Notes under the pieces: model-generated | Seen by the model: only the letters and a program-made list of their open reading frames with translations | What the model was told of the DNA's origin: nothing | Database searches by the model: none | From: Dipteris shenzhenensis | Taxonomy: Eukaryota | DNA length: 64,000 nucleotides | Assembly (NCBI GenBank): GCA_047967505.1 | Contig: CM106538.1 | Reading direction: 5' to 3' (one strand) | Part shown: one piece after another, positions 3,171 to 57,954 of the stretch | How the letters are laid out: the number at the start of each line of letters is the position of its first letter | How positions within the stretch are numbered: position 1 is the stretch's first letter | Position numbers and translations under genes: made by a program

Positions 3171-5553
3171 CCATGGCTAGGCGAGTAGAAGATGATAAGT
3201 TTTCTTGGCAGTATGCACACATGCGCGCACACACATGCACACACACACACATGTATGTGTATATGTATGTAGCATGCATCCACATGACACACTCATGCAT
3301 GCATGTGCACATGCACACACATAGACGCACATACATACAAAGTACGTTTGGTGTAAATTACGCATTTGTACAAAAGATAAGATGAGAGAGAGAGAGAGAG
3401 GCGGGTGCGAGGGGGGGGGTGCATAAGTATGACATGTCTTGTTTGTTATGCCTCCATTGGTTATCTTATGCTATTAAAGTAGATTGTTAAGTAATAAGGA
3501 ATGACAATTGCCAAGCCTTTTAAAAAGTGCAAATGGTACTACACTTTAAAGTCCCAAATTCCAAGATTACATGTCAATTAACACATCTGTGTTTAGATTT
3601 TGCATACATATGGGGTACCCACACTTAATCTCAAAGTAGACTCAGTTGAGATTTGTACATCAGTATGATTGGAGGATGTGGATCTTGGATAGGATTTGAA
3701 TGGGTAATGGAGACTTGGTAGCCTTAAAAAATGAATCGATTAGAGGCAAACTACAAGGCTTGAAAATCATGGACAAAGTATTATTGGTCTAATCTTTGAG
3801 CGTTTGTATAAAATATGATCATATCTTTTACTTGTGACAGTCACTATTCATAGTAAAAGTTCCCTCCACAAAGTATAAGTAAATTAGTGCATCACTTTGA
3901 ACAAAAAATGCTTAAACACTTGTTAATACATCTAATGAATGGCATAAAAAGTCAATTTAAAGTTGTTAAATACATAAAGCATGAAATAATCACTACAACA
4001 TATTCCCCTAATCACTTGAAAGGCTTTTCTATGATAAACCAATTTGAATGCAATTTTTCATATTCATAATTTCATATATAAATAACTGACAATGCAAGTA
4101 GTCAAGGATTTGGTACTAAGGTACTCTTGCTTTAGAATTGGTTGATTATTACACTCACATTTTCTTACCAATAGGTTAACTTGTCAAGCTCATCGATGGA
4201 ATGAGTGATGTGAGTTTTTACCAACAATGGCAACAAAAGGGCTTACTTGGTGGCAATGCAATGTCATGAGAAAGAGTTTGTATCAAAAAGCACGAGGCAA
4301 TGTGCTAAATATTGTGGTGTGCTCTCTATGTGGTGAACTTTCCTTTTCTTTTTTTTTAAATATAGAGAAGATAGACAACAAGTGCTCTCTCAAGGCGAAT
4401 TTGACATAAAGCATGACTGTGGTTACTAGGTAGGGAGGATGGCCATTGTCAATTGTCGGTGCGAGCGACCTTGGAACTTTACTTTCCAGGCTGAATTATA
4501 AGAGAGGTGACCCATTTTGAGACTATCGAGGGGCACCCTGCCCTGGCTCTAGTCTGGAAGCAGGAATCGAAGCAAGGTCGGTGGCCAAGTAGGCAGGAAG
4601 CCCTACCACTCGCGGCTTCCGGAGCTAAAACCTACAATTGATCTACTGTGCCCAAAGATAATGCTATTCCGTATTCTGACTGAAGTCTGTGTATTAACTA
4701 CAGATTCTGAACATACATCGTATACCGTATACGGTATTAATTATTGAGTTGGTGTTGGTGAAGAGAACCGGCTCCACACAGGGTGGAGCTTCCAAAGCTG
4801 GGCTATGGCTTCCATGGGCACCTTCTTCGTCTCTGGCAATAGCACATACACGAACAGGGCCGCCATCACTTGCCACGCTGCGAAGAAGACGAACAGTTCC
4901 GCCTTCATCTTGCATAGCATCGCCAAAAACAACTGCGCCCCCGCAAATATGAAGAAGAATATCACACAGACGTTGATGCTCTGCCCCGCAGATCTTATCT
5001 CTAGTGGGAAGATCTCGCTTGGCACCAGCACTCCCACCGGCCCCCACGACCACCCGAACGCTGCTACGTATATGGACACCGTTATCACCACCACGATCGC
5101 GTCCTGTTTCGGCAGTTCGTTGTGCGCTCCCAGCTTCAGGTGCAGTATCGCTGCGGTTATTATCTGAAAGCAAGCAGTCATGCTTATGTAAGCGTACGAT
5201 GGCTATGGCTGCAATGCATGCACGCTGAATTTTGTAGGCTAGTCTGATCAGATAGTGGGAGCCAATCTAATATCGGACAGCACTGATTTACCAGAGTTAT
5301 CACCATCACAAGACTTCCGTTGAACAAGAGCGCCCTGCGCCCCAACCTGTCCACCACCAAAGAGGCAGCCGTAGCAGCCCCTAGCGCAGCTCCCCCCAGG
5401 ATCACTGCAGAATACAGAGATGTACTTGCACCTAGCCCGAGTGTCTGGAAGAGCACAGGAGCATAGAACGTGATAATATTGATTCCTGTGAACTCTTGAA
5501 AGAAGGGGATGGCAAACGCCATGACCAGCTCGGGACGGTATCTGCGCTCGAAT

Positions 5554-5585
5554 CATTAGGAAAAAAGGGAGCTCATTTTGGGGCC
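5554..5585 (+). repeat. Left terminal inverted repeat CATTAGGAAAAAAGGGAGCTCATTTTGGGGCC
   Basis: Matches the reverse complement of 17759-17790 at 30 of 32 positions. Confidence 0.93.
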
Positions 5586-6044
5586 TTTTATGGTTTGGAA
5601 AAATAAGCTCTCAACCAATCAATAGAAGGCCAACGTAACGTTGAAAATTCACGAAAATAAGAGAAAATAGAAAAAAGAAACAATACTTTATGTAAGTACA
5701 AGCGTGCTACATTAATGAGGAGATTGGTTTTTTATTCGTAGAAGATCTTTGGACAAGAAGATAGAATCTAAACTGACATTTTATCTGACAAGATCCTTCC
5801 CGCTTCCACCTTCCTTTGAATTTTCAAATGTTGTGCCGCCTTTCGTGCGAAAGGTCTACCATTCTACACCATTGCCTCATTGTGCAACAGCCTTCCTTTT
5901 CCAAAACTGCTCCCTTGATCCTGTTTGGCGTAGAGTAAGATGTTTCTCGTCAACTGTCTGTTTGCCCACTTTCTCTTTCTTGAAACTTCAAATTGTTATC
6001 TTAGTTACATTACTTTGCTATTGTTACAGATTCAGAAAATCTCC

Positions 6045-7622
6045 ATGGTGAACCAAAACCACGGCCGTTCTTGTGCAAGACGCTCTGTGGATGATAATGT
6101 TATGAAGGCAGAATTATACCAAACATCCTTACCCCGTCGACCTGCTTCTTCTATTTCGTCGGTAGAGAATTCAAGTACAGTCAAAACAGAAGGAACTTGG
6201 GAAAGGTTTAGTGTTTCGAAAGGAGCATGGGTGCTCATGCAACCTAGCAAAAGAAAAAGACCCCAGACAAAAAACATTTTCTTGGCATCGTGGAAGGGAA
6301 GAGTACGAGATTTTAAAATCATCAAAGGGAAGATATCCGTGAAAGAAGTTTTGATTCAGCACGTGTACATGCATAAAGAACTTGTCTTGCGAGACTATCC
6401 AAAAAATCTTCCGCAACACAGGCCTAATTGTATATTTTTCTATTGTGGTTTTTTCCTTCATGAGGTGTATGGATTTTTAAGATGAAGCTTTCTCTCTTAA
6501 CTTATTGACATTCTTGTGTTGTTTTATTTCAGATTTATATCCTTCATCGTATGAGACATGGCAAAACATCGATTGTATTCTGGGATTTATAGATGTTCTG
6601 CATGGATCGATAGGAGAACAACAATACCAAGGTCGATGTGCAACAGAGCTAGCTCAATCGGGTATATTTTTTACTGATCATTTTTATCAGTTGCTAGACA
6701 AAGCTAACACACATGGTGTATTAATAAAACAAGACCTTCCGGCGTGGAATTCGGTGGATTGGCCTCACCCACATTCTAGTGTTACAGAGGCATATAGGGC
6801 GAAGCTTTTTACAGAAGTACAGAAAGCTCTGAGGCCCAATATTGCCACTAGGATAGTAAAAATTTCTTTGTGCATGCCTCTCACAGTTTTTGTAGACTTG
6901 TTTAATACCTTTCCAGTAAAGGTTTCAAAAACAATGTTCACAGTTAAAGCAATAAATTCGGCATGCATGCCACAATTTTTGGATAAAGGTTGGGATAAGA
7001 AGACATGTAGTTCAGTGTTTTGTGAGGTGGTCCAACCTTCTATGCAACTGAAGTACATGGTTGCATCACAAAATTTTATTTTCTCTTTTTATTACAAGCG
7101 CAGTCGAATGCTAGGCTCAAAGCTTGTCCCAATGGACCAAGATGAAGAGTCGTTTGGTGCACAAAATAAACTTATTGATATTGATGTTCTTGAGAATGGT
7201 GATGTGGTAGCCAATATCTCGTTAAGAGAATGTTGCTCCCTAGCTCAATTACGCAGTGACATTCTGTTTGAGACTGAAGGTTCTATCTCAAACGACTTTT
7301 TATTTATCTACAAGAACAGAAAGGTACACCATCTGATTTATCCTAGTCTCTATAAGCATTGCTATTAGTTTAATTTACCAGCTCAATTACGCAGTGACAT
7401 TCTGTTTGAGACTGAAGGTTCTATCTCAAACGACTTTTTATTTATCTACAAGAACAGAAAGGTACACCATCTGATTTATCCTAGTCTCTATAAGCATTGC
7501 TATTAGTTTAATTTACCACTCTAATTCATATTGCTTTTTTGCAGTTACTCAGAAGAAGAGAGAGCTCAGTTAAATGCAAAGACATAGAAAATTTTAAAAT
7601 TGAGATCACACATACTCCATAA
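6045..7622 (+). CDS. Transposon cargo gene A: putative BAH-like domain plus C-terminal ubiquitin-like-fold protein, about 417 aa (exons 6045-6429, 6533-7323, 7545-7622)
   Basis: Open spliced frame with GT-AG introns. The pattern WKGRVRDF..VLIQHVYMHKEL..YLYPSSYETWQNIDCILGFIDV resembles BAH, and SLAQLRSDI..FLFIYKNRK resembles a Ubl fold. A diverged homolog at 56.7-57.8 kb supports it being coding. Confidence 0.7.
7243..7518 (+). repeat. Exact 138-bp tandem duplication spanning the exon 2/intron 2 junction of gene A
   Basis: GCTCAATTACGCAG...ATTTACCA occurs at 7243-7380 and 7381-7518. Confidence 0.9.
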
Positions 7623-7706
7623 AGAAAGGTTTTGTATTCAATCAAGTAAGATTTTGTACAGAATTGTTTAGCTGAATCTGTAGAACATATTTCTAACATC
7701 CATTTT

Positions 7707-9807
7707 CTATTTATGTACAGTTTCATCCAGAGGCTGCTCTACATTTTCTGGAGGATCTTCTCTCTGCTGCTCCATCCTGTCCGTGCTCCATCCTGTCTCC
7801 TCCACTGCCCCAGAAGCCTCTCTTTGCTGCTTCTCCACCTTCTCCTCAACATCAGCAGCAGGTCTTTGCTCCTGTGTCTGCTCCTCCTCAGCACTCTGTG
7901 ATTGCTCCTGTGGCTTCTGGTCCTCAACATTAGGTGCTTCATATGTGGGATCAAGGTGTATGACACCTTCTTGTACTTTAGAGCTTTCACCCAGCTCCAC
8001 AGTAGCTGCTACAATAGGTTTGGGGGAGGCATAGCTCAAAAACCTCCAAATTGTATGAGCTCTAAAATTATGTACATAGTTGGGGCTGAAGCTATCCTCT
8101 TTCATCTGCAATGGCAGAGGATAATTTAGAACACTTTGTATCATTATGAATTATCTTCAAGCTAAATGAAAAGTATTTTTCCTTACCAGATCTGGCTGTT
8201 CCTTTTCAAAGTAGCTTGAAAGTATATATTTTGCATTGATCAGCACCCTCCATCCACAACTACTTGAATCATTTTGTTGTGGTGTCTGTACAGTTAGAAA
8301 AAAATGTTAGAAACTGTGAGCATCAGCACAAAACAAAATTATTCAATAAGTTCAAAGACATAGCATTTAATAGACTTTTTACCTCTAGACTTAATGGCTC
8401 TATTGAATCCAACAGAGAGACATTTGGAGGACAATGATCCAATGCATCTAATAGCCTTCTAATACAACTACAATATGTATAATTTAGTTAGTATGGTATC
8501 AAACTAATGAAGTTTTGAGTTCAAAAAGCACACACAGTACTTACAATTTCAGCTCTCTGTGTGTGTTTTTTAGAGAGTTGAATAGAAAGCATTGCTTCTG
8601 CTGGATGTCAATAGACACAAAACTCCAGTGGTCACTGCATAAGGAAAAAAATATAAGAAAATGAAAGGCTACAAGAGCTCCCAATATTAAAGAAGAATCT
8701 TAAAAGAAGTAGTCACCCACATACCTGCTATGATATGGAAGTAGCAAAATGTCAATTACTTCAAAATTGCAGTGTTTGAACCAGCTAGAAATACTCATGG
8801 GAGTCTCCTTTGCATCTCTTAATCTAGAAGAAATGGCTGGATCAACAATATGGACTGTATGTTGTACAGAGGGATGAAGCCAGCTTCTCATCATGCTGCA
8901 TAGGATCAGAACATAATTAGGGTAGGTTATAAAAGAGTTACAAGGAGGATTGATTTGCAAAAAATGTAAAATTTAAAGACACTTACTAGAGCATTGCAAG
9001 AATGATAGTATCTGAGCAATACTCATTCTTGTTAGCCAATGCTGCTAAGCATTGTTTTATCAAATCAAAATCATTGACTGAAACTTCATTTTCAATATGT
9101 ACAACTACATCAGGGCCCAGCTCCTTCAACCTTCTATGTATGTGTAGCTCCTTCTTTCCAGTCTCCACATCTATAACAGATTTTGTTTCTTTTATTTGCT
9201 GCTTCAGTGAGTCCTCATAAGCAGCCTTCCCTCTGGTGTTCTTTGAGTGTGTTACCTCAACAACCTTTACCTCATCAACCTTGACCTTCCTTGTAGGTGG
9301 AATTAGCAATATATCTCTCATTTTGATGTCCTGCCATTCCACAGGATGAACCAGCTTGTCATATCTCCATCTCACTCTGGACAAAGTGTTGAAATCTTTG
9401 GCCATCAAAGTCACCCTGTGAGCATGGGCTGCTACAAGCATTGCATCCTCAAAATATTTCTCCAGGTAATCCTCTACCATTTCCTGCAAGGAAAGAATGG
9501 CAGTTCTATTCCACCTGAACCCAAGGTTCCAACTGTCACAAATTTCTCTCACCAGTCTTTGAAAGGGTGCTTTGGGTATTGCAAAACCTATGGCTTTCTG
9601 TTGCCTCCTTATTTCCCTAAGCACACCTGCACCCTTATTCAATCTTTTGGCCTTTTGCTTGAGCAAGCTCATTGGCTTACCCTTCCTGCCATGTGAAGCT
9701 CTTCCCTTTGGAGGCACATTAAACTTCTTGGAACCTGTCCCAGCTGCTATTGCTGCAAGACTTGGTCCTTTGCCAACTTGCCTTGCAGTTGATTTGGTTC
9801 TTGCCAT
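7707..9807 (-). CDS. Transposon cargo gene B: histone H3-like fold fused to an Ulp1/SENP-type (C48) cysteine protease, 554 aa (exons 9807-8987, 8895-8725, 8634-8545, 8467-8383, 8285-8187, 8105-7707)
   Basis: MARTKSTARQ tail and histone fold LREIRRQQK..IPKAPFQRLVREI..LQEMVEDYL..FED..HAHRVTLMAKD. Then SDTIIL, LLPYHSSDHWSFVSID, FNSL and PQQNDSSSCG (His/Asn/Gln/Cys catalytic pattern). Five GT-AG introns with matching phases and no internal stops (1665 nt). Confidence 0.88.
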
Positions 9808-9859
9808 CACTCTGAAAAACTGCATACAAAGGATTGGAAAGAGATCACAGACATGAAGA

Positions 9860-11150
9860 ACATGTTCTAACAAAGAAAAGGCAATCACAGGGGTGGAAGA
9901 AGCCAAATAGAGAAATTTGCAATAAAATGCGATATGAGCAGTTTGGAATTTCAAACAGGTCCACATCGCATTTTGCTGCAAATTTTTTAAATGAAATGCT
10001 GGTGCACTCCTACAGTGATTTCTATGTTTCTCCAACCAAATACAGTATGAATGGAGGTCATGCAAGAAGATCACATGCAAATATCACACTTGAAGATCTG
10101 CATTCCTTCAGTGATTTCTCTGTCTTGGTTTGAGCCTATGCATTTCCATACAGGATGTAATTTTTCTATTTTAGGCAAGAAGATTGCAGAGACTAAGGGG
10201 AGTCACAAAACCAGACATGTTCTCACAAAGAAGGCAATCACAGAGGTGGAAGAAGCCAAATAGAGAAATTTGCAATAAAATGCGATATGAGCAGTTTGGA
10301 ATTTCAAACAGGTCAACATCGCATTTTGCTGCAAATTTTTTAAATGAAATGCTGTTGCACTCCTACAGTGATTTCTATGTTTCTCCAACCAAATACAGTA
10401 TGAATGGAGGTCATGCAAGAAGATCACATGCAAATATCACACTTGAAGATCTGCATTCCTTCAGTGATTTCTCTGTCTTGGTTTGAGCCTATGCATTTCC
10501 ATACAGGATGTAATTTTTCTATTTTAGGCAAGAAGATGGCAGAGACTAAGGGGAGTCACAAAACCAGACATGTTCTCACAAAGAAAAGGTAATCACAGAG
10601 GTGGAAGAAGCCAAATAGAGAAATTTGCAATAAAATGCGATATGAGCAGTTTGGAATTTCAAACAGGTCCACATCGCATTTTGCTGCAAATTTCTGAAAT
10701 GACATGCTGGTGAACTTCTACAGTGATTTCTTTGTCTCTCTAGCCAAATACAGTATGAATGGAGTTTATGCAAGAAGATTACAGCTATGGAAGTCAAAAA
10801 ACCAGAACATGTTCTCACAAAGAGAAGGCAATCACAGGGGTGGAAGAAGCCAAATAGAGAAATTTGCAATAAAATGCGATATGAGCAGTTTGGAATTTCA
10901 AACAGGTCCACATCGCATTTTGCTGCAAATTTTTTAAATGGCATGCTGGTGCACTCCTACAGTGATTTCTATGTTTCTCCAACCAAATACAGTATGAATG
11001 GAGGTTATGCAAGAAGATCACATGCAAATATCACACTTGAAGATCTGCTTTCCTACAGTGATTTCTCTGTCTTGGTTTGAGTCTATGCATTTCCATACAG
11101 TATGTATTTTTTCTATTTTAGGCAAAAAGATTGCAGAGACTAAGGGGAGA
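9860..11150. repeat. Tandem array 1 (four units, spacings about 353/355/239 bp), each with a ~73-bp imperfect palindrome
   Basis: AAATTTGCAATAAAATGCGAT...ATCGCATTTTGCTGCAAATTT starts at 9913, 10266, 10621 and 10860. Confidence 0.9.
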
Positions 11151-11358
11151 ACCCATTGTTACTGACCTGGAATCTATCTGTGGATGTTCTGTGCTGCTGA
11201 GGAGTAATCTGTGCTGAGGATGATTCTGTGCTGCTGGACAAGATGCTGATGCTGTAGAGTATGGAGGTAGGGAGGCAAGAGAGCAGAGACTGGAGGGCAA
11301 GAGTTCTAAAATAGGATACCACAAAGAAGTGCAAATAGAATTAAAGAATCACTAAATC

Positions 11359-11436
11359 CCACACGTGTGGAATCTAGTCGTTTTTCACACGTGTGGATGG
11401 GACCCAGATCTCTTGGAGTTTGAAATCTGGCACGTG
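11359..11436. promoter_or_regulatory. Putative bidirectional promoter core with three G-box (CACGTG) palindromes
   Basis: CCACACGTGTGG at 11359-11370, CACACGTGTG at 11386-11395 and CACGTG at 11431-11436, midway between divergent genes B and C. Confidence 0.45.
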
Positions 11437-11874
11437 TGAAAGTACACTTTATTCCTTGGAACTTGTGCCATTCATGATTTCATCATCAATACCACAACCA
11501 CTTTTCCCTCCCCTGGATTCCAATCTCTCATCCCTGCCACGACTCTCTCCTGATCCTTTCTCTCTAATCCTTTCCTACCCAGCACACTCCATCCAGACTG
11601 CAACCTGCCTGAAGACAGTACTGCCAGATCTCCAGGTTACCTAGAGTGCAAAGTTCAAGCTAGAGAAAGAGCAGGAGATTTACCAGTGCAACTCAATCAG
11701 CATGGAAAAGGAAAAAAAAGATCAGAGTTCTAGTTTGGTTTCAATGTTTTTCAACATTTATTTCTTCCATCCATTGGATTTTTGATGTCCCAATGTCTTC
11801 ACTCAGCTCCATCCTTCTTCCACAATGTGGTAAATCACCCAGAAATTAGATTGTAGGTTGATATGAATAGAAAC

Positions 11875-12365
11875 AAGAAATTTGCAACAAAATGCGAGGA
11901 GAGTGGTTTAGAATTCTCTAAACAGCCCATATCGCATTTTGCTGCAAATTCCTGTTGTGGACTCCTTGCTCATGAAAAGTTTCACTCATTCCATTTTTTC
12001 TCTTGCATATGAGATCATAGTGTCCAGGAATCACTGAAATGAACCAAGTGCTTGATTTGACATGCACATGAACAGAACTTGAGAATTTGCAACAAAATGC
12101 GAGGAGAGTGGTTTATAGTTCTCTAAACAGCCCATATCGCATTTTGCTGCAAATTCCTGTTGTTGACACATTCCTCATGAATAGTTTCACTCATTCCATT
12201 ATTTCTCTTGCATATGAGATCATAGTGTCCAGGAATCACTGAGATGAACCAAGTTCTTGATTTGACATGCACATGAACAGAATTTGAGAATTTGCAACAA
12301 AATGCGAGGAGAGTGGTTTACAATTCTCTAAACAGCCCATATTGCATTTTGCTGCAAATTCCTGT
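11875..12365. repeat. Tandem array 2 (about 2.4 x 205 bp) carrying a related palindrome in inverted orientation to array 1
   Basis: AATTTGCAACAAAATGCGAG...AT(C/T)GCATTTTGCTGCAAATT at about 11878, 12083 and 12288. Confidence 0.88.
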
Positions 12366-12690
12366 GTATTATTTGTTTCTCACTTCTACCTCATTAATTT
12401 GCTATCTTTAGCCCTGTGGAAATCTTCCTTGATGATGAGAAATGTTTTTGTTTTGGAACAGCTGGCTCCCAGGCCCCACCTTTCAAGAGGAAGCTGGACT
12501 TTTCTGCTGCTATAATTAGACCACAGCAATCACCAGGTGAGTGATGAGATGTCATGAAGGAATTATCTGGTGATATACAATGCATTCACTGATTGCATAT
12601 GTCAGCATATAGAATTCATAGTATATAAGTTTTTGAACAGGCAAAAAGAAGAGGCTGGAGCAGAGTGCTGATTCTTCCATCAAAAAACAA

Positions 12691-14332
12691 ATGGAACCAG
12701 AAGAGGACAGTTCTCCAGATTTGCTCCTATTTGAGTTTCTTCACAAATGCAAGGCTCAGAGTAACTTCCATTTATACCACAGTATTTTCAACATGGAGTT
12801 CTCAATGAGCTCTGTACTGGAGCAACACAAAGATTTTCTTTCAGACTATTGGGATGCCTTCAAAGAACTGACAGAGGCAGGAAGAATTGTGGGAGGTGAA
12901 AAGGTTTTTGTGCACCTTAATCATATTGTCTCCAATGACAGGCTGAGGTACCATGTGAGCAGAAGATTTGACAGCCTGCCTGCCTCCTATAAATTCAACT
13001 GTACTTTGCACACCAGAAAGTGCAGAGTGCTGGAGGAGAGCATGGCATTTCTTATGTACATTGTCTTCAGTCAGGAGTCTTTGGATGAACAAGGGCAGGA
13101 AACAGAAGAAGAAGACACATCTGAAGCTTCTGAAAAGGAGGATGTTTCTTTGGGCTCTGAAATGGCAGAGCAAGAAGAAGATATCAACCTTCAGGATGAG
13201 GGGCTGCAAGTGGCTGCTCTTGACCTTGTTCAACTGAGGAAAAAAACTCTGAGGGGAGCAGAGCCAGTTGAAGATTTTGATGTTCAGAGCAGCAACTATG
13301 CAGTGCCCATGCTTCCAGGTGTGTTGATTGGTGGAAAGGATTATGTTTTCCTCCATGATATAGAGTGTATGTTTGATTTGAGGGAGGACTATGCCATTTC
13401 CCTTATTGCCCAGGCTTCAAGGCTTGACAAGGAGGTTGGCATAGAGGATGACCATTCACTTCTGGCTTTGGAAACAATGTTTGATCCTGTAGAGGCCCTT
13501 TCATTTTGTTTCAAAGAGGCTGAAAAGTTCCAAGAGCCAGATGAAGCTGCCTTCCAACTCACATGTCAGGAAGCTATGAATCTCTCAGCTCTATACACAG
13601 AAAAGACTAGAGAAGAGGCTGTACAAGAAGGGAGAGGGATAAATCTTTGGAAAGATGAACTGCTTGTTGCTGATGAAAATGAGAAGGTACTTCAAATCAT
13701 ATACTTTGACTTCTGCTTAACTTTAGTTTTGTAGGTTGTGTATTGTCTCACTCCAATCCTTTGATATGTTGCAGCTACAAATTGAGGATGACACATTCCT
13801 CCAGAGATCAAGTGGAAGCAGGCAGGTTGGGTTTCGCGAAATGTCAGGCCTAGCTCATTATATTCATGATCTAGGCAGTGCCAAGATCTTGATTTACCAT
13901 AGGCAGTTGAGCAACAATGGAGAAGCCATTGTTTACTTCCTAAAATGTTTGTCCAGGGCTTTAGGTGGACATGCTCTTTCATGGCAAAAGGAAAAGATCA
14001 TTTTGATAGAGAGGTTGTCTGCCATAGATATATTTGGAGATTATGTGAATAAGCAGGCCTCTAGGGCCGCTTACTTTTTGTCTTACACTTCTTATGCATT
14101 AGCATGTGGTGTTAAGGACCCCAAATATCTGGAGGGCTATGGAAAACACCAGCTCGTAAGGTTTCGAGAGCCACCCATGATTGCATCAGGCCACACAGTC
14201 CAAGAAGAGGAACAGGTGGAGAGAGCTGAAGAAAAGGATAAAGAGACAGTCGACATCAAGCCAATAAAGAAGAAAAAGACTCCAATCAAGATCAAAAAGA
14301 GAGTTCCGATGAACAGGCCCTGGGAGAAATAG
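12691..14332 (+). CDS. Transposon cargo gene C: acidic protein of unknown function, at least 517 aa (exons 12691-13686, 13775-14332; probable extra 5' exons at about 12462-12536 and from 12641)
   Basis: Two long ORFs joined by a phase-0 GT-AG intron (13687-13774); Glu-rich segment and basic NLS-like C-terminus KKKKTPIKIKKR. Confidence 0.65.
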
Positions 14333-14656
14333 GATTTAGTCATCGAAATATAGCACAAACATTATATTAAATTTGAACTGATTTGTATAAAGTCTTTGAT
14401 ATCTGGTATGATCTTGTATAAATGATTAATAAGTTGATGATGAAATGATTTGTACATTTACATAGAGTGGTGTCGTTAAATATTAAATGAACAATATATT
14501 GAAATTGTAAACAAATTGTATTAAGTTCAGATCATATGTTTCACATTGAAATTTTTTTCATGCATAACACCAAGAGTCACTTATTCCACTAAAAAAATTT
14601 CTATTGAATGAGTTTGAAAACATGTGGACATAACACCAATAAGTTACAAATGAGTC

Positions 14657-17389
14657 CTATTCATGTTTACTTGTCCATTTATGGTTTCTAAATATCTTCG
14701 ATTCCCTCCACTGTCTATGTCTCTCTGCTGCAATTGAATTGTCTAGAGCTTGTCTTCGTCTTTGCTTTTGGGCTAGAAGAAAAGCAAGCTTGATTTTGGA
14801 GCTAGCAACTTTTCTTTTAGCATGCAGCCTTTGTAGTATGCCTCGGTAAAACCATTGGAAGACTTCCTTCAGACTATTCGCCTTCTGACTCCCTCCATAG
14901 TGTTGTGTGTGTCTAAAAAATGCATTACGTGCCATGTAGTGAGACTTCTCCATGCCTTGGGTAGACCAAATAGCTGGGCATCCATACTTTTTGACAAAAT
15001 AGGGAAGGTGGTTGTATATGATATGCTGTAAGACATAAGAATGCATAGTAAGTAATTAAAAAAAAGAAGATCACACTTAAGTAAAAGAAAAAGACATAAC
15101 CTTAGCATGTAGTGAGTTATATTGCAGGTTGTCCACGCGTCTTTCATTGACTTTCCAAAATGTTTAATTGCCTCCTCAAAGTTCTTGTAATCACTCTTTG
15201 TCCATGTTACTTTGTCACAGAACATGAAGAGTTGATCAAGAGACCTCCACACCTCTGCCTTCCTATTTCGTGCTTCCCCATCTGCCTCATGATCTTTCAC
15301 AGCATTATGGACTTGCTTCCACAATCCATAATTAATCTTTGAAACTGCTCTACCTTGCCTTACTTGCTTACTGTGTTTGGGTCAAGACAAGAATCTTCTT
15401 GCCTTAACACCACCAATAGAGGGCTTGATTGGTACCTCCTTGCCATTGGTAGACTTTTTAAAATCCTTTGTGATTTGAACATCTCCTCCATGCAGACCTA
15501 TATCGGATAACACTTTTTCCAATGCTTGAAGAGCATCCTTTCTTTTTCGGGACGGAGTTTCCAAGCAAATCCAATATATAAAAATACCAATTTCTCAATA
15601 ATTCGACATAGACCATGCAATGTGCAGATGTGAACATTACATAGTGGAATGTCCAGAATGGCCTTGAAGTCAGGGTCAACTTTATCTCTATTAGGTGCTC
15701 TCTTCCACCATTTTGAATCCATTACTTGAGCTGATTCTTTGCAGTAAAGACAAGGAGACTTTGAGTTGCCTCCTTTACTAATGTTATACATGCACTTAAG
15801 TGTTTTAAGATCCCCGGCCATGTGTCACTCTACTTGAAAATCACCTTTTCCTGCAACATGGAGATTCTCGCCTTGCACTTGTCTTTTGATTATTGTTGGT
15901 ATTTCCGTGTGATGAAACACCCAATCTAGTGTTTCATGGTCTTCGGTCTTCACCTGTGAGATTATAGAAAACAAAAGTATTACTATATCAGATTTGAAAA
16001 CAATGACCAAAATCAAGTATAAAACAACCCATGATCATACCTGGAACGACGAGCCTAACCACCATATGTGTTTCTCTGACTGCACACTAAAATACTTCGA
16101 ACTCGCTTCAGTCAATGATGTATCAATTGCTCCATTCATCAATGTAATAGTAACTCTTTCCATTTTCTTTTCCTTTACAACCTCACACTCATCCAGTTTG
16201 ATAACAAATTTCAAAATGCCTTTGCACTCCTCAAATGTTATTCCATAAAACTCGACCATTCTTTTTTGAAGTTGTTGCAGATCTAAAAATATATTGTTCC
16301 AAGGATCATACACAGTGGTTCCTTTAACACCATGAAATATTTCTTCAATATGGATATATTGCCCAATAAATTCATCTATACTTTCATTCAAATGACCTCT
16401 TATCCTCCACACGGTTGCTGGATTTGGCAGTAAAACTCGTTTAATCCTTTGATCTTTCAAAGTTGAGGATATCGCATGGAAAATCGAACTATATCCCTTC
16501 CTGCTAACTCCACTAACATCAAGAGCCTCTTGGATTATAGTGCCATCAACTTGATTATTGGATACAAAGTCCTCTACAACATTGCGTTTGACTGTTTGTA
16601 TTTTTTTTCCTCAATCAAACCTTTTGCTACACCGCAAGAAAGCAATCCTTTCATTTGTTTAACAGGAAGAAGGTTCGGGTCCATATTTTCTTTTGCAGGC
16701 TCCAATAATTTCCTGTAATAACAACACAATATGACTATATTATTCAGCACCTCCATTCTTGTTTTGCGACAATCAACGAAATAGATATAGTCTGGAAGAG
16801 AGCCTTTTTGAGTATACAAAATGATAAATTTCAATCTAACCTTGCTTCCTGAATTCGTCGCTTGCATCCACCAGTCCCAGCCTTCAAATTTGCAATGTTT
16901 TTAATCTTCCTGCTACGTTGTCTGTCTCCAAGCACGGTTCTCTTCTTTCTTGCTCTTGTCAATTCTTTTTTACTCTTTGAATGCTCCTCGATTTCATTCT
17001 GCAACTGCTGCTCCAATTTTGCACGAATGGCTATCTCCTCCATCTTGGCCCCCTTTTCTTGTAGGTACATCATTTTATACGTTTCCGCAAATGCACTGCG
17101 CTGAAATATAACCAAGAAGTCCATTTTGTCCATCGCCGGCAAACCTCAGTAATGTGGTGGGATTGACAAATGGAGGTGTAGAGTTTTTTACATGACATTT
17201 TGGATATATGCTTCCATCGCACCATAAGTCAATATGTTGAAGCCCTTCTCTTCTCATATTTTCCCGCTGTTGAGCATTCAGCACCGTATCCTTTCGTCTT
17301 TTTTGTGCTGGAGCATATTGTTCTTCCAAGTCGATGTGAAGATGGTGTAATCGCTTCTTCTCAGATAGTGACTCACTAGTATCGGCCAT
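14657..17389 (-). pseudogene. RAG1-core/Transib/Chapaev-like DDE transposase, inactivated
   Basis: Ordered motifs LGDRQRSRKI, VSRKGYSSI..LLPNP, FVIKLDE (D), AGDLK..SPCLYC (D + CxxC), CTLH, ITHYM|HIIYNHLP..KKYG..WSTQGMEKSH (H..H, E). In-frame TGA at 15825-15827 and 15382-15384; frameshifts near 16601-16608 and about 15545. Confidence 0.78.
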
Positions 17390-17758
17390 TTTTTGTGCTC
17401 CTCAGGTTGCGAAGTTTGTTTTTCAATCTCATAGTCGTTTTGTAACATGAATCGTGGAAGTGTGGCGGTATCCATGTGAATATTTTGAAAACTTGCAATC
17501 ACTAAGTTCAGTGATGGACTCTTAATGAAAGACCTGCACACGTCGGCCAAAGAGATGCGGAATCTTTCGTAAACAAAAAAAAATCTAAGAGGATATTTAA
17601 TACAAAATCGTGTTAGTCAGACAAAAGATTATCTTATTCCTTTTTGAATTGACAGTTCTGTAGTACTTACTGACAAATCTGAGCCACGTTTCCGTATTTT
17701 ACTATTTTTGAGGTCTTTTAGGAGAGAAATAAATCAAAAAATAGTGAATTTCTTACAG

Positions 17759-17790
17759 GGCCCCAAAATGAGTTCCCTTTTTCCCTAATG
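17759..17790 (-). repeat. Right terminal inverted repeat (reads CATTAGGGAAAAAGGGAACTCATTTTGGGGCC on minus)
   Basis: Partner of 5554-5585. Confidence 0.93.
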
Positions 17791-20094
17791 ATGTTACGCC
17801 ATGGATGCTTCACTTGTTTGCAAATCTCGCTAGCCTCTACCAGATCTTCAAATTCCTCTTGCACATCTAATGTTCCCCGCATCTTCTCCAAAATGGCACG
17901 GCCCTTGTCAAGATAGCCTCGTTGGATAAGACTGCTGGGTGAATCAGGCAAGAAAAGGGCTCCTATCACGATGACAGTTGAAGGAATGATGGTCGAACCG
18001 AGGGAAATCCTCCAGCCCCAGGGAACAATATTGGAAGTCCCGTAATTCACAAGGAAAGCCGTGAAAACGCCAAAACTTAGAGCCACTTGGTTCATTCCAT
18101 TGAGTCCACCTCGTAACCTGTGGGGAGCAACTTCCGACAGGTACAAAGGCACAGACTGCAGGGCACGATTCAATCTAAGCTTCGTTTCTCTTTCTTACGT
18201 TTTCTCTCAAAAGGAAGCAGCAAGCAATCCATACTTATAAATTTCATAGGGAAGTTAAAGCTCAAGATGCCGAACTTGATTTGTAAAGCCGAGGCGGATT
18301 CCCAGTAAGATACGTCCCAACAGTAGCATTGCCAGGTCCTGAGCAGCACCGTTGAGGACGGACCCAACAACGAAACAAATCCCTTCCGTCATGATAGAAG
18401 CTCTCCTTCCATACTTGCTCGTAAAGGTCGCTGCAAATAACGAGGTAACTAATCCCGCTAGATAGAGCGAGGACGTGAATGCCGTGAGGACTTGACTGTT
18501 AAACTTGCAATAGTTGTCGGTCTTGGCTGAGTGTCGCTGGCGATAAACCTTGGGAAAGAATTTGAGAAGGAAGTCATCCATGGCGGTAACGCCCCCTGGA
18601 AGCGTCAAATGGTTAAATACAATCCGCGCAAAACTTGTATATTTCGATTATTGGAAGTCGGAAGCGGACCTGAGATTCCGAGATCGAAGCCAAAGATGAG
18701 TCCACCGGTGGCGGCTGTGATGCAAGCGAGAATTACGTAAAGGGTAGCATGGCGAGTGTAATGGTAGTCGCGCTTGGAGGAAGGAAGGAAGAAGGCGCCC
18801 CCCGCCATGGCTTCTATGGGCAGGAGCTTCTTGTCCAAAGAGAATTATAGAGGTTGCGTGCTGGTTTGCATTTCTAGTCTCTAAAAGTCACTCACAAGGT
18901 TCACACCTTCCAATTAGATTCACACATCCCTTCCACTTTTTGCTTGCCCCGGTTGCTCCCTAGTTCACTTCAAGGAGGTGGGTCCCTAGTTCACTTCATG
19001 GAGGTGGGTCCCAACGCCACCCTCAAATGGCCAAGCACCTACATCTACCTCAAATAGAGAGAGACGACTCCTATTGAACATCCATGACTTGGGTTCTCAT
19101 ATCTCGAATGTGACTCCCAAAATCATTAAGCCAAGATGCTTCATAAGAGTCCAAGCTATCCGATCTCCCTTTTTGACTCTTGAGGCCTCTAGGTTCCCTT
19201 TGTCACTTTCTCTTGTACAGCACTAAGTAACTAGTAATGTATACGACAACTTTTCCAACAATTAGGGAGACTTGAACGTGTGCATGGTAATGCTATTAGA
19301 ATCATAAATTTTAAGTGAGCGAATATGCATTCTTCATGTATATTGCATTCATTTATGAATTTTATGAACGCACACATCTATTCACCACACACTACAAAGG
19401 GCCCACAAATCTTAATATCATTGGGACCATGAGAACTAAGGATTTGATATGCTCCTTTTAACCAGGTGTGATCATGTTTAACTTTCTATTTCGTTTTGGC
19501 AGTACCTTCTCTATAGGCACTATGCCCTTGGCACATTTAACCTTTGATAATTTCCTCATAATGAAGTACATGCACATAGCAAAAAATGAGAGAACATGCT
19601 ACTTATGACATTGTACAAATGAATATATATCTAAATTGAAACAATTTACATAAAAATCTCAACCATGTAAGTATAATTTCAAATATGAATATAAATAAAC
19701 ATACATATCATATATATATCCATTTATATATAAAGTATTGTTAAATAATATAACCACACACCTTATGGAGGGAGAGCTCGACACACTTCCACTTGCCCTC
19801 CTCTCATAAATAAGAAAGAATAATTATTTATGGTATCATGAGAGTTCTCAACTATTGTGTCAATGGTCAAAATGGGCTAGAACCTCCTTTTATTGAAAGC
19901 TTATGATCGTCAAACCCAATGTTATTTCTGGTTGACATCTTGGTATTATATTTGAAAGCCTCGATCAACATACATATTTATTATCTACAAAAGTGTCTTA
20001 TTCAAAGAGATTCGATCAAAACCAATCAACATGAGGAAATGTATTGATGTGTGAATGGTCCACAATACCTTAGAGACAACCTTGGATACTTACC

Positions 20095-23226: not shown

Positions 23227-23645
23227 CTAGAAGTTTAGTAGTAGCTCCCTAGCAGGTGTAGGAAGTCTTAATAAGAAGTTAGCTCCTACATGGGTTTTCC
23301 CAGGTTTATGAATAATTTTAAAGTTCAACTCTTCAAGAAGAAGCACCCAATGCACAAGGAGTCCTTGAATAATAGTCTTATTGATTAGATAAAGTAATGC
23401 CTGATGGTCCACATAAAACACTAAAGGATTGCTGAGTAAATAATTTCTTAATCTTTGCACACTGAATATCATACCCAAAGCTTCTCTCTTGGTGGTACTA
23501 TAGTTGGACTCAGTAGGTATCTATAGCAGACTAGCATAATATAGTGGGGATAATCTAGTCGACCATTTGGCTGAGCCAAAATAATGCATAAAGCATACCT
23601 AGAAGCATTTACAGGCAAATGGAAAATAACATCCCACCTGGTTGC
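23227..23645 (-). mobile_element. Ty3/Gypsy RNase H fragment
   Basis: VNAS..ILAQ, RLRNYLL..VFYVDHQAL, WVLLLEELNFKIIHKPGKTHVGANFL. Confidence 0.75.
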
Positions 23646-23881
23646 CTTAAAATGGCATCTACCCTTGGGTGCTGCAGTCCACCCCTTTTTTTTTCCTCTA
23701 TCAAGATAAAGTTTTTTTTGGTGATGGAATTTCACCACACATTACAAGGGTATGCTAGTGGCCATTTGCATCTTCATTTTAAATAAATTTTCTTGGGAGG
23801 AAAATTGTACTATAAAACATTTCATAGAAACAAAAAGAATTGCTTTACACGCCTTTAACAAAAAAGATTTCCTTGAACTTT

Positions 23882-23934
<53 letters not shown>

Positions 23935-24899
23935 ATTAATGTCCATAGAAGAGCAACAGGTCTATGGGATAGCAAAAAAACCATCTAGTACATCTGCTTT
24001 AGGGAGGGAACATGGCAGCTCCCAGGGAGTGCAAAAGCAACCCAATTATTTAGAGCACTTACATAATAGTTTGAAAGAGTAATCAACCATACATTAGTTT
24101 TAGATGGAGAGTCTTTTGGTTTTGGATTTAAACTCTTTGATTAGTGCTATGCCTTCACGAAAAACTACCCATTTTCCATCCTTCCTAGTAGCCCTGACTT
24201 TAGCTAATTCCATTGCCTTATTCTTCAATTGAGCTCATGTAAGTTCCTCAGATATCCATACCTTGGTCCCTTTCAATTTGCAAGATTGTCAAAGGAGCTT
24301 GATCTATAAATCTCGTGACTTAAGTGTAAGGATAGCATGTCCTCTGGAGTGCTGGATATTAGTTGCTCCCTCATCATCATCATCATCATCATCATCATCA
24401 ACCTTCCATTCAATATTAGGCATGGCTACTTTGACATGTGCTAAAGTCTCACTCAAAGAGTCATCATTTTTGAACCATGCTTCAAGGAGGCCCCCCACCC
24501 TAATCTTCAATGCACTATCACGTTTGGCTTTGTGTTCTTTGATCTCTTCTTGGATATCAATCTTGTTTGCCTTTGTGTCAAAATCGTCAATAACTTCTTT
24601 CTTGATTGATTGTACTTTAGTATGAACCATATTGGATCGCCCAAGGGCCAGATGGCAATCCACTCCTTTTTTAAAATTTGTCAAGATAATTTTTTTTGGG
24701 GTAATGCACTTGCACTATAGATTACAAGAGTATGCTAGTGGCCGTTTACATCAAGAAAATATCGTGAGAGAGAAAAATTGTATAAAATAATACATAGAAA
24801 CACAAACAACTGCTTCAGACATGCCTTTAACAAGAATGATTATCATTGCTTCCAAAAATTTGGTAACATCATGTAAAATAGATAGTGTATATATAGCTC

Positions 24900-25420
24900 G
24901 GGATGTTTTCAATGATGGATCACTTTTGATTCGACCATCAAGAGCTATATCCTTGTCTATAATGGTCACCCTCTTTGCATATATACAGCAAAAATTTTCA
25001 TCTTCCAAAAATATAGTGACCAGTTGCACTTTTGCAGCCTCTTGCAATGTTGCCAAGGCAACACTTTGTATTCTTGCATTATACATGTATTCTTGCAAAA
25101 TCTCTTTCACCAAAAAGGAAAAAGGAGCTTTAGGCATAAGCGATTCGACACTCTTCTCACACCTCTTGATTTCTAAGAGTGCTCTCCTCCACGGTTTCAT
25201 TCAATATTTGCTTCTACTACTACCACCTCCACCATTGCCACCGCTATTGCCACCACGACCGTCGCCGCCACTGCTAGGGTGACCACCTCCTAATTTCTTT
25301 TCTCATTCTTTCTTTCTCTTTGACTTTCTTGTGTGGGATGTTTTCTTGGAAATTTGTGGGCTACTAGCTTGGACTTGCTTGTGGGTAATCGAAAGTCTCT
25401 TTCTTCCTTGGGCCCATTTC
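24900..25420 (-). pseudogene. Second, decayed histone H3-like gene
   Basis: KPWRRALLEIKRCEKS..LMPKAPFSFLVKEI..RIQSVALATLQEAA..LEDENFCCIYAKRVTIIDKDIAL; Gly-rich upstream tail interrupted by stops. Confidence 0.75.
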
Positions 25421-26439
25421 ATTGAGCCATTCCAAACTCATGATGTGTGTTTTAAAATGTGCACCTTGTGCTCTATGATACAAAATATCCATAGCTTGCG
25501 TACTCCAAACATTCAATGAACATACTTTTAATAAACCATGAATGATGGGTGTAAAGAATGTGTTGCACCCAACATAAAAACAAGCGCCAAATATGCTTTT
25601 TTCAATGCACACTAAAATTTGTAATAACTTTTCCATCTTGCACATGTTTCAAGCCCTTATTCATATGTGTAATGCTGACTCACTCTATCTTTTGTCTGTT
25701 CACTACTTCACACTTATCTAACTTGATATAACAAACACTAGTTTTCCATTGCAATTTGCAAAAGCACAATAGCAAAGCTGTCAAGCCTATGCACAATTTC
25801 TTGTTGAAATGATGCCTCTAGGAAAACATGAGATCAATACCCAAATTATTATACTCATCTCCTACCTTCATGTTGTAGAAATGGAAACTTGCAACTCGCA
25901 CCTTATGTACATCCCAAGAGCACATTGTTGTTCTCAGTGTACTCAAATGCAGGTAAATTTTTGGAGTACCACCATGGTGTCCAAAATGTCCAAAAAAGAA
26001 CCCAACATATCTTGCACAATAGAATTAGACCTTTTTCTTGCTTTCATAGCATGCTTAGGTCTCAGCAACATTGGATTCTTTAGACCATGGCAATGAAGTG
26101 CATTATAACAGATATTATAAATGGTCGACTATGTTGCCTAGATCATGGACCACCTCTTACAATATTGCAAGGGACAATGCACATCATCTGGGACCTTGAA
26201 GAATAGAAATGAATTCCTTTGTTTTTATGGCACTTTTCATAGCATAAAGTTTTTTGCAAGTGTTCTTTCCAACATCACTAATAAAATTCATGAAAAATAC
26301 TTTATGAACACAAATTCAACTTAATGGAACAAATTAATGTAAAAAACAAAAAGTACATTGAAAAGTACAATGAAAAAAATGGTTTATAATATAAACTGTG
26401 TGGCTTGCACTATCCATCCATGCTCTAACGCTTGGAAAT

Positions 26440-27520
26440 ACACTTTAATTGGTGGACACCTTTATCATTAGTGTGTAGATGGAGTTCTTGTAGATGGGTT
26501 ATACCACACAATCAATTTGCATGAAGCTCACTCAAGTCCATCAGGAGGACATTTCCAAGGAGAGTTAACTACCAAAAAAGTGTTGTAGGCAGGATGATGG
26601 TGGGAAACCTTGTTTAAGGATGCTCAAGCTAAGTGTAGTCATTGTGATGTTTGTCAGCACACCGGATGTTATTGCCCAATCATTCTATGCCATTGCAACC
26701 TACTCGACCTTGGGAAGCTTTTCAAAGATGGGATTTGGACTTTGTTGGCCCTTTTAAACCTACCAAGCTTACACAAAATAGATACATCATTCTAGCTACT
26801 GACTATGCTATTAAGTGGGCGAAAGATAAGGCACTCCAAGATAACTCAGCTTAGAACACTACCAAGTTTATTTTTGAAAACATCATCTACAGATATGGAT
26901 GCTCTTTATAGCTTGTTAGTGATCAAGGTTAACATTTCCTTAATGACATTGTACAATTCCTCAAGACTGATTTCAAAATCATGCATGCAATTTCCACTAC
27001 TTATTATCCTCATAGCAATGGTGAAGCTGAGTCCACAAACAAAACACTCAAGCTTATTGTCAATAAAATAGTGCAATCATCCATGAGTGAATGGCATACT
27101 AAACTTCATTCTGCTTTATGGGCATATAGGACTTCTTATAAGGTCCTTTACAAATCTTACTCTTTTTCGTATGGCGTTTGGCTTAGAAGTAGTAGTCCCC
27201 TTAGAATCTATTGTTCCTAGTCTTCATATTGCCACCGAGCATCACTTGGATGAGTCAGAAACAATCAAGAGGAGATTGCATCAGCTAAGCCACCTAGATG
27301 AGTTAAACCTTTGAGCAACCTGGTCATAGTAGGTGACACAGTGTAAAAGAAAGGCATGACATGATAGGCATATTGTGCCTAGGCATTTGAAGAAGGGTAC
27401 GCTTGTATTATTATACAGTGCCAAGCTGGGACCTCTTTAAAAAAATTTTAATCTAGGATGGAATGGCCCTACTAGTTAACTGAAGTTTTTTTCAATGGGA
27501 CAGTTCAACTTGAAGATTTG
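26440..27520 (+). mobile_element. Ty3/Gypsy integrase fragment (decayed)
   Basis: HHCC remnant (EAH..GGHF..CDVCQ), FQRWDLDFVGP, ATDY..KW, YYPHSNGEAESTNK, LWAYRT. Confidence 0.85.
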
Positions 27521-55308: not shown

Positions 55309-56713
55309 GGGTAATCTGTTCCGTCAAAGTCTGCGGGGGCCAATCTATGGACCTTTGCATACGATCCGTGCTCTTGCAGAAAACGTCCCCCGTGACATAA
55401 TGGTGTAATGTCCATTTTTGGCCTCGCACTTTTAAAGTGGAAGCCTAAGTAACGATGCGTTACCTGTGAAAGCGAAAATGATTGTTTTGTTTATTTGATG
55501 GAAATGTTGTTGAAATGTCCCGATGCAAAACTTGGGTACATACATGGTCATGGGAATTGACGCGGCTTGGAAATGGTAGGAAAATTCGCTCGAGCATCCA
55601 TTGTTTCAAAGTAATTGTCGATAACCATTGTACTTGTTTGGACACAATGGATTTTAGGTGGGTAGATTCTTTTATAGTTAAAGTGTGATGCGATCATGTC
55701 AAGTTCATGTCCTCAAGCATGGAATTATAAGGTGATGTGACTAATGGCAGGCATGCTAGAAATCGATATGCAGTGTAAAAAAGACTATGACCAATCTAAT
55801 ATGCTTGAGTTGTTCCAATGTAACTGTTGGTAATCAATGCATTTGTACAGATATGACCAATTTGAGATCTATAGATTATTGTCGAGCCTTTGTTTACTAA
55901 GCACAAATGATGTTGTTCCATGAGATTTGCTAGTTATATTTGCTTTTAAGAACATTCAACCATGTTGATGTTGAAATCTCCTAAAGGAAAAGTTGGGTTA
56001 CTAGATGGTTTCTAAGCAGTACTTGTGCTTGGTGCTCTACGAAAGTGTGAAGGAGACATGCCTTGATCCGCTATTTTGAAATAATTGACTAACACCAAAG
56101 CCCGATAGAAATAGTAATAAAAAATGGCACCAAATTTCCATCTTTGCCATTTTTTACGTATGAAATGGCAAGCATTTCTCAAAGAGCCATATATTTGATA
56201 GAAATGGAAGTTGGAAATGGCAACGAGATTTTTGCCCCAAAAAAAAAGGCAATGAGATCCTCAACCTACAATTTCTTCTACAAAGAAATGGCAATAGGAA
56301 AGGGCAACATTTTCTTGTCTACCATTTCTTAGGATTAAATGGTAGCACAAAATGGCAAATATTCCTTCATTGCCATTCTTATGAAGAAATGGGAGAAAGA
56401 GACAACTTTACGGATGTACAACTATATAAACTTGACAAGGACTCATTTTTGAAAAACATCACGGACTCAAATATGATTTCCCTCCTAAACAAGTGTTCCC
56501 GCTTGTACGAATCAAAGATTCAAATGTGCTTTCTTGAGTGTAGGATTAGGCCTATTTCCCCCCCCAGTTCTCCTGCTCGCACTTTCCATCCATGGAAATA
56601 GGCACCCTAGGGCATCTTTTTTGCCTAAACGGGCTTTGTTGCTACTTTTCCTCCTAGTTCTCTCACTTGCATTTCACCCATTTGCAAGTTTGGTTCTCTT
56701 TCATGAATCATCC

Positions 56714-57770: not shown

Positions 57771-57954
57771 TGGGTAATCTCAATAGGATAGTGTTGTACA
57801 CATTAGGGAAGATTTGGCGTCTCAAAAGGGCCTCTAATTAGTGTTTCATAATTTCAAGGGATTAGAGAGGGATTTGAGGTGTTCCAATGTTTGTGTGGGG
57901 CAATGGTACATTGAGGTGTACAAAAGGACATGTTGTGCATTTATAGGTGGGGAG

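Follow-up and report, generated by a model that had tools for sequence, protein, structure and literature searches.

In a 64,000-nucleotide stretch of Dipteris shenzhenensis DNA (assembly GCA_047967505.1, contig CM106538.1; the whole stretch that was analysed is called the window below), a 12,237-bp element was identified inside an exon of a sugar-transporter gene. It is very probably a defective, non-autonomous copy of a large cut-and-paste DNA transposon with terminal inverted repeats (TIRs), whose DDE transposase belongs to the RAG1/Transib branch within the CMCT clade. This clade comprises EnSpm/CACTA, Mirage, Chapaev and Transib, and also Plavaka, ESTA and Lanisha (Kojima 2025, PMC12730594). 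The element represents a divergent plant lineage of a known kind, namely of the CMCT clade, whose sharing of motifs with RAG1 is already known. What is notable about it is the full-length RAG1-like architecture of the transposase, the lack of any target duplication where the empty site could be observed directly, and a conserved cargo resembling histone H3.

Ends of the element and the empty site

The insertion was delimited using contigs from three runs of as many studies (organism A with two runs, organism B with one), which were taken as RNA-derived because they are without the introns of the host transporter gene (coordinates of all features are given in Table 1). In the contigs of each of the three runs, position 5553 is joined directly to position 17791, i.e., 12,237 bases with the ends CA..TG are skipped, with no ambiguous base. 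The transporter transcripts without the insertion in those samples are 99% identical to the host gene, and the empty site (...GAAT/ATGT...) restores the reading frame ...RNI/FERRYRP. The profile of the Pfam family Sugar_tr is split by the element in the same way, one flank matching profile positions 122-250 and the opposite flank positions 250-335. Contigs of other copies of the element show similarity to the window that stops exactly at 5554 and 17790, which confirms the termini. The alternative that the element is spliced out of the host mRNA was also considered and rejected, because the skipped segment ends in CA..TG and not in GT..AG. That the locus is not mobile at all, and is instead a gene domesticated by the host or a set of motifs that arose by chance, has nothing in its favor beyond the lack of a match to a curated protein family; it is refuted by the exact empty site and by the other copies that end at the same bases, and since the inverted ends, a second relic in the window and the decayed reading frame also point to a mobile element, we consider it hardly conceivable.

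The two TIRs of 32 bp begin with the heptamer CATTAGG. The heptamer alone is not above chance (9 matches compared to 8.84 expected), and when five flanks were aligned, only those at 5554 (plus strand) and 17790 (minus strand) were alike. The 23-base core of the ends has two matches, which are the two termini, and none was found in 100 shuffles. There is no target-site duplication at this insertion (AAT/ATG), and a target that is not duplicated implies joining without a stagger. Models assuming a 2-bp duplication of AT, a 2-bp duplication of TA, a 3-bp duplication or a 5-bp duplication were tried and rejected, as none of them accounts for the filled as well as the empty sequence. That all three samples have transporter transcripts without the insertion suggests that it is recent or polymorphic.

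A dead transposase gene and its intact relatives

The transposase gene is located on the minus strand and extends from an ATG at 17389-17387 (MADTSE...) to a stop codon at 14659-14657. This is exactly the span for which an earlier note on this DNA, made from the letters alone, had proposed an intron-containing gene, and three introns were found in it. All motifs quoted in that note were located in the window copy, the inverted CATTAGG ends that it described (CAT rather than CAC) were confirmed and lie outside its span, and the lesions behind its remark that the reading frame needs repair were identified as three frameshifts, an in-frame TGA and a mutated splice donor, so that the window copy of the transposase is dead. 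At the first frameshift, the window copy is without two bases, AG, that its expressed relatives have behind 17094 in all three runs; at the second, the expressed relatives have one base more behind 16594 than the window copy; and the third lies between 15540 and 15585 according to tblastn of homologues. Contigs of related expressed copies skip 128 nt at intron 1 (16711 joined to 16840, in all three runs), 80 nt at intron 3 (15024 joined to 15105, in run X3) and 92 nt in the region of intron 2 (15956 joined to 16049 with two other letters between them, in run X3). The motifs THYM and HIIYNH are contiguous only once the 80-nt intron has been removed, and the intron after THYM is found at the same position in many members of the family, whose proteins read through as HYMV.... 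Across the H-x4-H region, the alignment of the window piece with the homologue P0147 is gapless.

A first search with the largest window piece retrieved a single relative (P0001, E 2.4e-27), and a search with P0001 retrieved 32 proteins. A profile scan of 1.84 billion representatives yielded 836 proteins, mostly fragments, at E <= 0.001; for 119 proteins E was <= 1e-30. Intact proteins of about 900 amino acids (aa) were found in two clusters, P0018 (898 aa) and P0025, each of which has several members of full length; a query with the C-terminal part of P0018 returned three proteins, P0018 included. The closest database relatives of the window copy are 43-52% identical to it (tblastn), P0018 and the window copy share 36-40% identity, and identities within alignment A3 (52 members) range from 25 to 64%. 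Cluster look-ups of 20 proteins provided organism names: Adiantum nelumboides and, on two short fragments, the labels Prorocentrum and Pyramimonas.

The residues expected of a DDE enzyme are well conserved among these sequences. The first Asp is D in 41 of the 42 members covering its column, the second is D in 40 of 44 members, and the Glu is E in all ten sequences with a true C-terminus; the two cysteines of the C-x2-C motif are C in 37 and 36 of 41 members, respectively. Five sequences cover both C-x2-C and H-x4-H: both motifs are kept in P0018 and P0025 and both are lost in P0092, P0104 and P0121, and such joint retention or joint loss is predicted by one shared zinc site. The latter subgroup (P0092, P0104 and P0121), in which D, D and E are kept and the zinc motifs are gone, may, judged from its sequences, represent a naturally occurring form of the RAG1-like core that does without zinc. 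Intact members of about 800-900 aa are predicted to consist of an N-terminal part with helices and a coiled coil and, behind it, a core that corresponds to RAG1 from the dimerisation/DNA-binding domain to the C-terminal domain. This core is modelled as an RNase-H-like fold with D411, D508 and E785 (P0018), interrupted by a predicted zinc site of C-x2-C and H-x4-H.

Because the window copy is unable to make a transposase, intact relatives must have moved it into the sugar-transporter exon; such relatives are expressed, with their introns spliced out, in the same organism or in a sister organism. If RAG1 and Transib are taken as a guide, a dimer of the transposase would pair the two CATTAGG ends and nick the DNA at the border between flank and CA; the freed 3'-OH of the flank would then attack the other strand, so that the flank is closed by a hairpin and the transposon end is left blunt, and the 3'-OH ends of the transposon would subsequently be joined to the target.

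Likeness to RAG1 and relation to known superfamilies

The RAG1-like reading of the transposase is supported by structure comparisons and sequence searches. An AlphaFold2 model was built of P0018 (a homologue, not the window protein) from the 52 rows of alignment A3; its pLDDT averages 76.9 and is about 90 for residues 370-780. The modelled places of the acidic residues agree with those in RNase-H-like DDE enzymes, the first Asp being part of a strand, the second following directly on the end of one and the Glu belonging to a helix. The predicted structure displays the core architecture of a RAG1/Transib-like fold, namely a DNA-binding/dimerisation domain, a pre-RNase H part, an RNase H split by zinc-binding inserts and a C-terminal domain, together with the D/D/E residues and the C-x2-C and H-x4-H motifs. 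Foldseek against the PDB gave 49 matches at E <= 0.001, and all 37 listed down to rank 49 are RAG1, BbRAGL or HzTransib (7e-12 to 8e-5), with the P element at rank 50 (E 0.012). VIA-align was run twice, on the Foldseek top 1000 and on 48,161 chains independent of Foldseek. In the first run, RAG1 reached a Z of 20.4 (root-mean-square deviation 4.6-4.7 Å over 446-449 residues, model residues 259-847 corresponding to RAG1 475-1008), HzTransib 13.2-18.8 and BbRAGL (the amphioxus RAGL) 18.8, the matches to the RAG1 family extending over 367-470 residues; next best were the P element (10.3), ISCth4 (8.7) and Hermes (8.2). In the second run, nine chains attained Z >= 8, the top six belonging to the RAG1 family (14.2-20.0), followed by the P element (10.4), Hermes (8.5) and ISCth4 (8.0). 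With RAG1, RAGL and Transib as best matches and all others at Z <= 10.4, the RAG1-core-like transposase proposed in the earlier note was recovered by both programs, and neither the structure nor the Pfam searches gave best matches to ordinary plant CACTA, Mutator or hAT transposases or to non-transposase proteins, the outcome that the note had named as speaking against its proposal. Its basic NBD-like helix was not established; one of the 50 listed structural alignments reaches the NBD of RAG1 (RAG1 421).

Searches of the PDB by phmmer with P0147 and P0076 gave 15 matches each, all of them to RAG1 (E 0.0024-0.019); with P0001 no match to RAG1 was obtained. The alignment is gapless over RAG1 928-965 (numbering of chain 9jpu_A), with H-x4-H on H937 and H942 and the Glu on E962, which reproduces the alignment of C-terminal motifs to RAG1 that had been made by eye from the window. 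In RAG1, H937 and H942 are established zinc ligands and E962 is the catalytic Glu. The Pfam family matched by most A3 members is RAG1 (PF12940), with two of the 52 members (E 0.003-0.004, profile positions 553-593), and no match to the Pfam families of CACTA, Mirage, Chapaev, hAT or Mutator was found in the 52 members. Language-model neighbours were used as leads, the searches with the core and with the whole protein counting as one source: the neighbours of the core were RAG1 clusters at 0.96 (203 of 256 features) and DUF1280-bearing clusters at 0.95, and a nematode DUF1280 cluster came first for the whole protein (0.95).

With RAG1, BbRAGL (ProtoRAG) and Transib, the family thus has in common the predicted fold, in which D/D/E would sit on a strand, a strand end and a helix, with C-x2-C between the second D and H-x4-H; the convergent gene arrangement of the window element is as in ProtoRAG. 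The termini are CAT..ATG and not CAC..GTG, so that the CAC of a strict Transib is absent. Transib elements have a target-site duplication of 5 bp, which was seen in none of the three runs at the window insertion (a single insertion). The family also differs from RAG1 in its N-terminus, a predicted coiled coil without a RING or zinc-finger domain, in a gene with introns and in its plant host. Eukaryotic DDE transposons without target-site duplication are reportedly found in the Spy elements (PHIS group), whose transposase family (Harbinger/ISL2EU-like) is unrelated to the family described here.

Several observations weigh against placing the element in the RAG1/Transib branch. The curated threshold of Pfam RAG1 was not reached (best 16.1 bits compared to a cut-off of 25), and no curated Pfam family was above threshold for nine window pieces, P0001, eight homologues and the 52 A3 members, the matches of the window pieces, of P0001 and of the homologues being no better than chance. 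Neither the profiles A2, A3 and A4 nor the last exon of the window copy alone matched RAG1 in the PDB. The evidence on the fold comes from the predicted model of P0018, whose identity to the window copy is 36-40%, and the PDB is without CACTA, Mirage and Chapaev transposases, so that a fold search cannot rank these against RAG1/Transib. The absent target duplication rests on one insertion, and cleavage chemistry, hairpin formation and dimerisation are drawn by analogy.

The parallel in motif order to RAG1 pointed out in the earlier note is present, but it is less special than assumed, because the order D..D..C(2)C..H(3-4)H..E is, according to Kojima 2025 (PMC12730594), common to the whole CMCT clade including ordinary plant CACTA; there, ESTA transposases too are tied to RAG1 by HHpred. 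The window family has both this motif order and the 5'-CA..TG-3' termini of the CMCT clade, for which duplications of 2-5 bp are described in the same text, compared to 0 bp at the window insertion (one site). It might be argued that the element is an ordinary plant CACTA/EnSpm too diverged for Pfam, and that the match to RAG1 reflects a fold common to CMC transposases: EnSpm and RAG1 share this motif order (PMC12730594), no CACTA structure in the PDB competes with RAG1, and the size of 12 kb, the several genes and the internal tandem repeats are like those of CACTA elements. Against this, no match to Transposase_21 (TNP2-like), DUF4218 or another CACTA family was found at E <= 5 in the 52 A3 members, nor in the nine window pieces and eight homologues; the termini are CATTAGG and not CACTA, there is no 3-bp duplication, and RAG1, Transib-like and DUF1280 clusters but no Transposase_21 set are among the listed language-model neighbours. 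We therefore regard an ordinary CACTA element as improbable.

Chapaev elements deserve a separate comparison. DUF1280 corresponds to Chapaev transposases and was grouped with RAG1 (Majorek 2014, PMC3985635), Chapaev and Chapaev3 were placed in the Transib superfamily and a Chapa zinc-finger domain was defined (Kapitonov and Koonin 2015, PMC4411706), and the ends are CAC..GTG with 3-4 bp duplications (Zhang et al. 2014, PMC4079192), in each case as stated in the excerpts at hand; in the source text, Chapaev is described solely from animals. DUF1280 clusters are among the nearest language-model neighbours of the window family, and no HMMER match to DUF1280 was obtained at E <= 5 in the 52 A3 members. 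No conserved Cys/His cluster that could indicate a Chapa domain was found in the first 260 residues of five members (3-8 Cys), which is a weak test, and the N-terminal region of the P0018 model, where this domain would sit, is predicted to contain helices and a coiled coil. The window element, with CAT..ATG and 0 bp, differs from Chapaev in both termini and duplication. If a Transib or Chapaev element had lately reached the plant from an animal by horizontal transfer, this would explain why the closest folds and language-model neighbours are from animals, and horizontal transfer of Chapaev among animals is documented (PMC4079192). The identity to RAG1, RAGL and Transib in the structural alignments is, however, only 11-16%, the position of the intron after THYM is common to many members, the family is diverse (25-64% identity within A3, 836 representatives), and the ends and duplication are unlike those of Transib (5 bp, CAC) and Chapaev (3-4 bp, CAC..GTG; PMC4079192), so that we judge such an arrival to be very improbable.

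The DDE transposase of the RAG1/Transib branch may already carry a name. Lanisha (Maumus, McDaniel and Carey, Repbase Reports 2020; GenBank MT647524) comes from a moss, Ceratodon purpureus, and is called a "previously undescribed" cut-and-paste superfamily in a land plant (PMC8245031). In PMC12730594 it is assigned to the CMCT clade, is given the same pair of motifs, C(2)C and H(3-4)H, and is likened to EnSpm. The window family is likewise common in plant-like sources (two Adiantum proteins and one fragment labelled as green alga). On the other hand, 2-5 bp duplications are described for CMCT lineages (PMC12730594) and the window insertion has none, and Lanisha resembles EnSpm, yet the EnSpm family Transposase_21 of Pfam is matched by none of the 52 members. 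Compared by description only, Lanisha may be the most likely existing name for the window family; we hold the identity of the two to be a serious possibility, slightly short of an even chance. A bolder reading would see in the family a plant- and alga-wide branch of the RAG1 fold at the level of a superfamily, with a zero-base stagger unlike all described members of RAG1/Transib/CACTA, which carries its own H3 variant and a second conserved gene and perhaps acts on chromatin at the element or its targets; this we consider unlikely.

Other genes and repeats, and wider meaning

In addition to the transposase, the element contains an H3-like gene, for which phmmer against the PDB gave 176 matches, the 60 listed all being H3 (best 1.6e-22). 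An H3-like sequence stands beside transposase remnants in three cases, among them a second, degenerate relic that lies elsewhere in the window, and P0032, a protein of Adiantum nelumboides annotated with the same combination of transposase and H3. The mutual identity of the H3-like sequences is only 35-48%, which indicates that the association of transposase and H3 is old. Literature searches gave no paper that describes a DNA transposon with a histone as cargo. The second relic is interrupted by retrotransposon pieces (23227-23741 and 26517-27220). At 39685-40011 (plus strand), the N-terminal part of a chimeric prediction, P0171, which also holds a transposase fragment, matches with 31% identity; this is probably another repeat.

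The left-arm gene is expressed, with a contig depth of 15-206 across 5588-8057 in run X3, and two joints were observed in it (7626 to 7719 in run X3, with GT..AG; 7465 to 7559 in run X1, with eight other letters between). It has no match in Pfam, and a model from a three-row alignment gave a pLDDT of 34.8 and a pTM of 0.23. A kelch or RAG2-like family was not matched in Pfam by eight frames (six inside the element and two host exons), the left-arm gene being without a reliable fold. The region of the left-arm gene includes a perfect tandem duplication of 139 bp (7242-7380 = 7380-7518, 100% identity). Its paralogue in the window is without a transposase match nearby and is cut off by a Copia-like gag-integrase frame (58723-60508). 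The middle of the element (8058-13985) is without contig cover, which is uninformative on expression there. Both tandem arrays in the element (9860-11149 and 11863-12365) hold 74-base palindromic units.

Table 1. Features of the element, its host gene and related sequences in the window (P0018 numbering for residues of the predicted model).
Feature	Position	Strand	Evidence or remark
Whole transposon copy, 12,237 bp, 5'-CATTAGG...CCTAATG-3'	5554-17790		Contig joints, similarity ends, split Sugar_tr match
Left TIR, 32 bp	5554-5585	+	30/32 bases match reverse complement of 17759-17790
Right TIR, 32 bp	17759-17790	-	
Host sugar-transporter gene	4600-5553 + 17791-18787	-	Introns 5164-5291, 18156-18275, 18595-18668 from contigs
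Host exon, upstream half, ends ...VKHPWRNI	17791-18155	-	Pfam Sugar_tr E 7.3e-30; spliced contigs
Host exon, downstream half, starts FERRYRPEL...	5292-5553	-	Pfam Sugar_tr E 1.4e-18; spliced contigs
Transposase pseudogene, four exons	14657-17389	-	tblastn of intact homologues, splice sites and frames, contig joints of expressed relatives
Transposase exon 1	17389-16841	-	Begins with ATG
Transposase intron 1	16713-16840	-	GT..AG
Transposase exon 2	16712-16041	-	
Transposase intron 2	15954-16040	-	GT..AG
Transposase exon 3	15953-15106	-	
Transposase intron 3, 80 nt	15026-15105	-	CT..AG in window copy, donor mutated
Transposase exon 4	15025-14660	-	Followed by stop 14659-14657
VIKLDE, putative first catalytic Asp (D411)	16188-16205	-	Beta strand 403-416 of predicted model
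Premature in-frame TGA	15825-15827	-	Replaces conserved Trp of (V/I)EWH(L/M)AGDLK in relatives
AGDLK, putative second catalytic Asp (D508)	15804-15818	-	Right after strand 497-507 of predicted model
CLYC, C-x2-C, putative zinc ligands (C528, C531)	15741-15752	-	
VHICTLH	15615-15635	-	
THYM	15106-15117	-	
HIIYNH, H-x4-H, putative zinc ligands (H761, H766)	15008-15025	-	First codons of exon 4
STQGME, putative third catalytic residue, Glu (E785)	14948-14965	-	Helix 783-798 of predicted model
Left-arm gene, frameshifted here	5934-8034	+	Open reading frames 5934-6485, 6481-7368, 7684-8034; inward, convergent with transposase
H3-like gene, 273 aa	8986-9807	-	N-terminus MARTKSTARQ, histone fold, 127-aa C-terminal extension; Pfam Histone E 2.3e-26
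Tandem repeats, ~355 bp	9860-11149		Immediately upstream of H3-like start codon; self-BLAST 91-97% identity
Second tandem array, ~205 bp	11863-12365		Self-BLAST 91-97% identity
Two adjoining open frames, 365 + 201 aa	12637-14332	+	No Pfam match; no contig cover
Second relic of the same transposon family, degenerate	24751-26122	-	Transposase N-terminal half ~25479-26122, H3-like frame 24751-25200 directly downstream
Left-arm gene paralogue, 56% aa identity	57134-57814 within 56669-57841	+	

RAG1, the enzyme by which vertebrate antibody genes are rearranged, arose from a Transib-like transposase, and the relatives that are usually discussed are animal elements. Beyond mentions of Lanisha, no paper on a RAG1-like transposase in land plants was found in searches outside Repbase Reports. 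The family described here, common in plant-like sources, is predicted to keep the whole RAG1 core yet to differ in end sequence, target stagger and partner protein, three properties by which the behaviour of RAG and Transib is defined. Its intact, expressed members (e.g., the cluster of the 898-aa protein P0018) could help to trace the 5-bp stagger and the requirement for CAC to particular parts of the RAG1 fold, and the H3-like cargo, recurring three times beside the transposase, suggests an accessory function that has been kept for a long time. As the family is invisible to Pfam, it would be missed or mislabelled in the annotation of fern and moss genomes.

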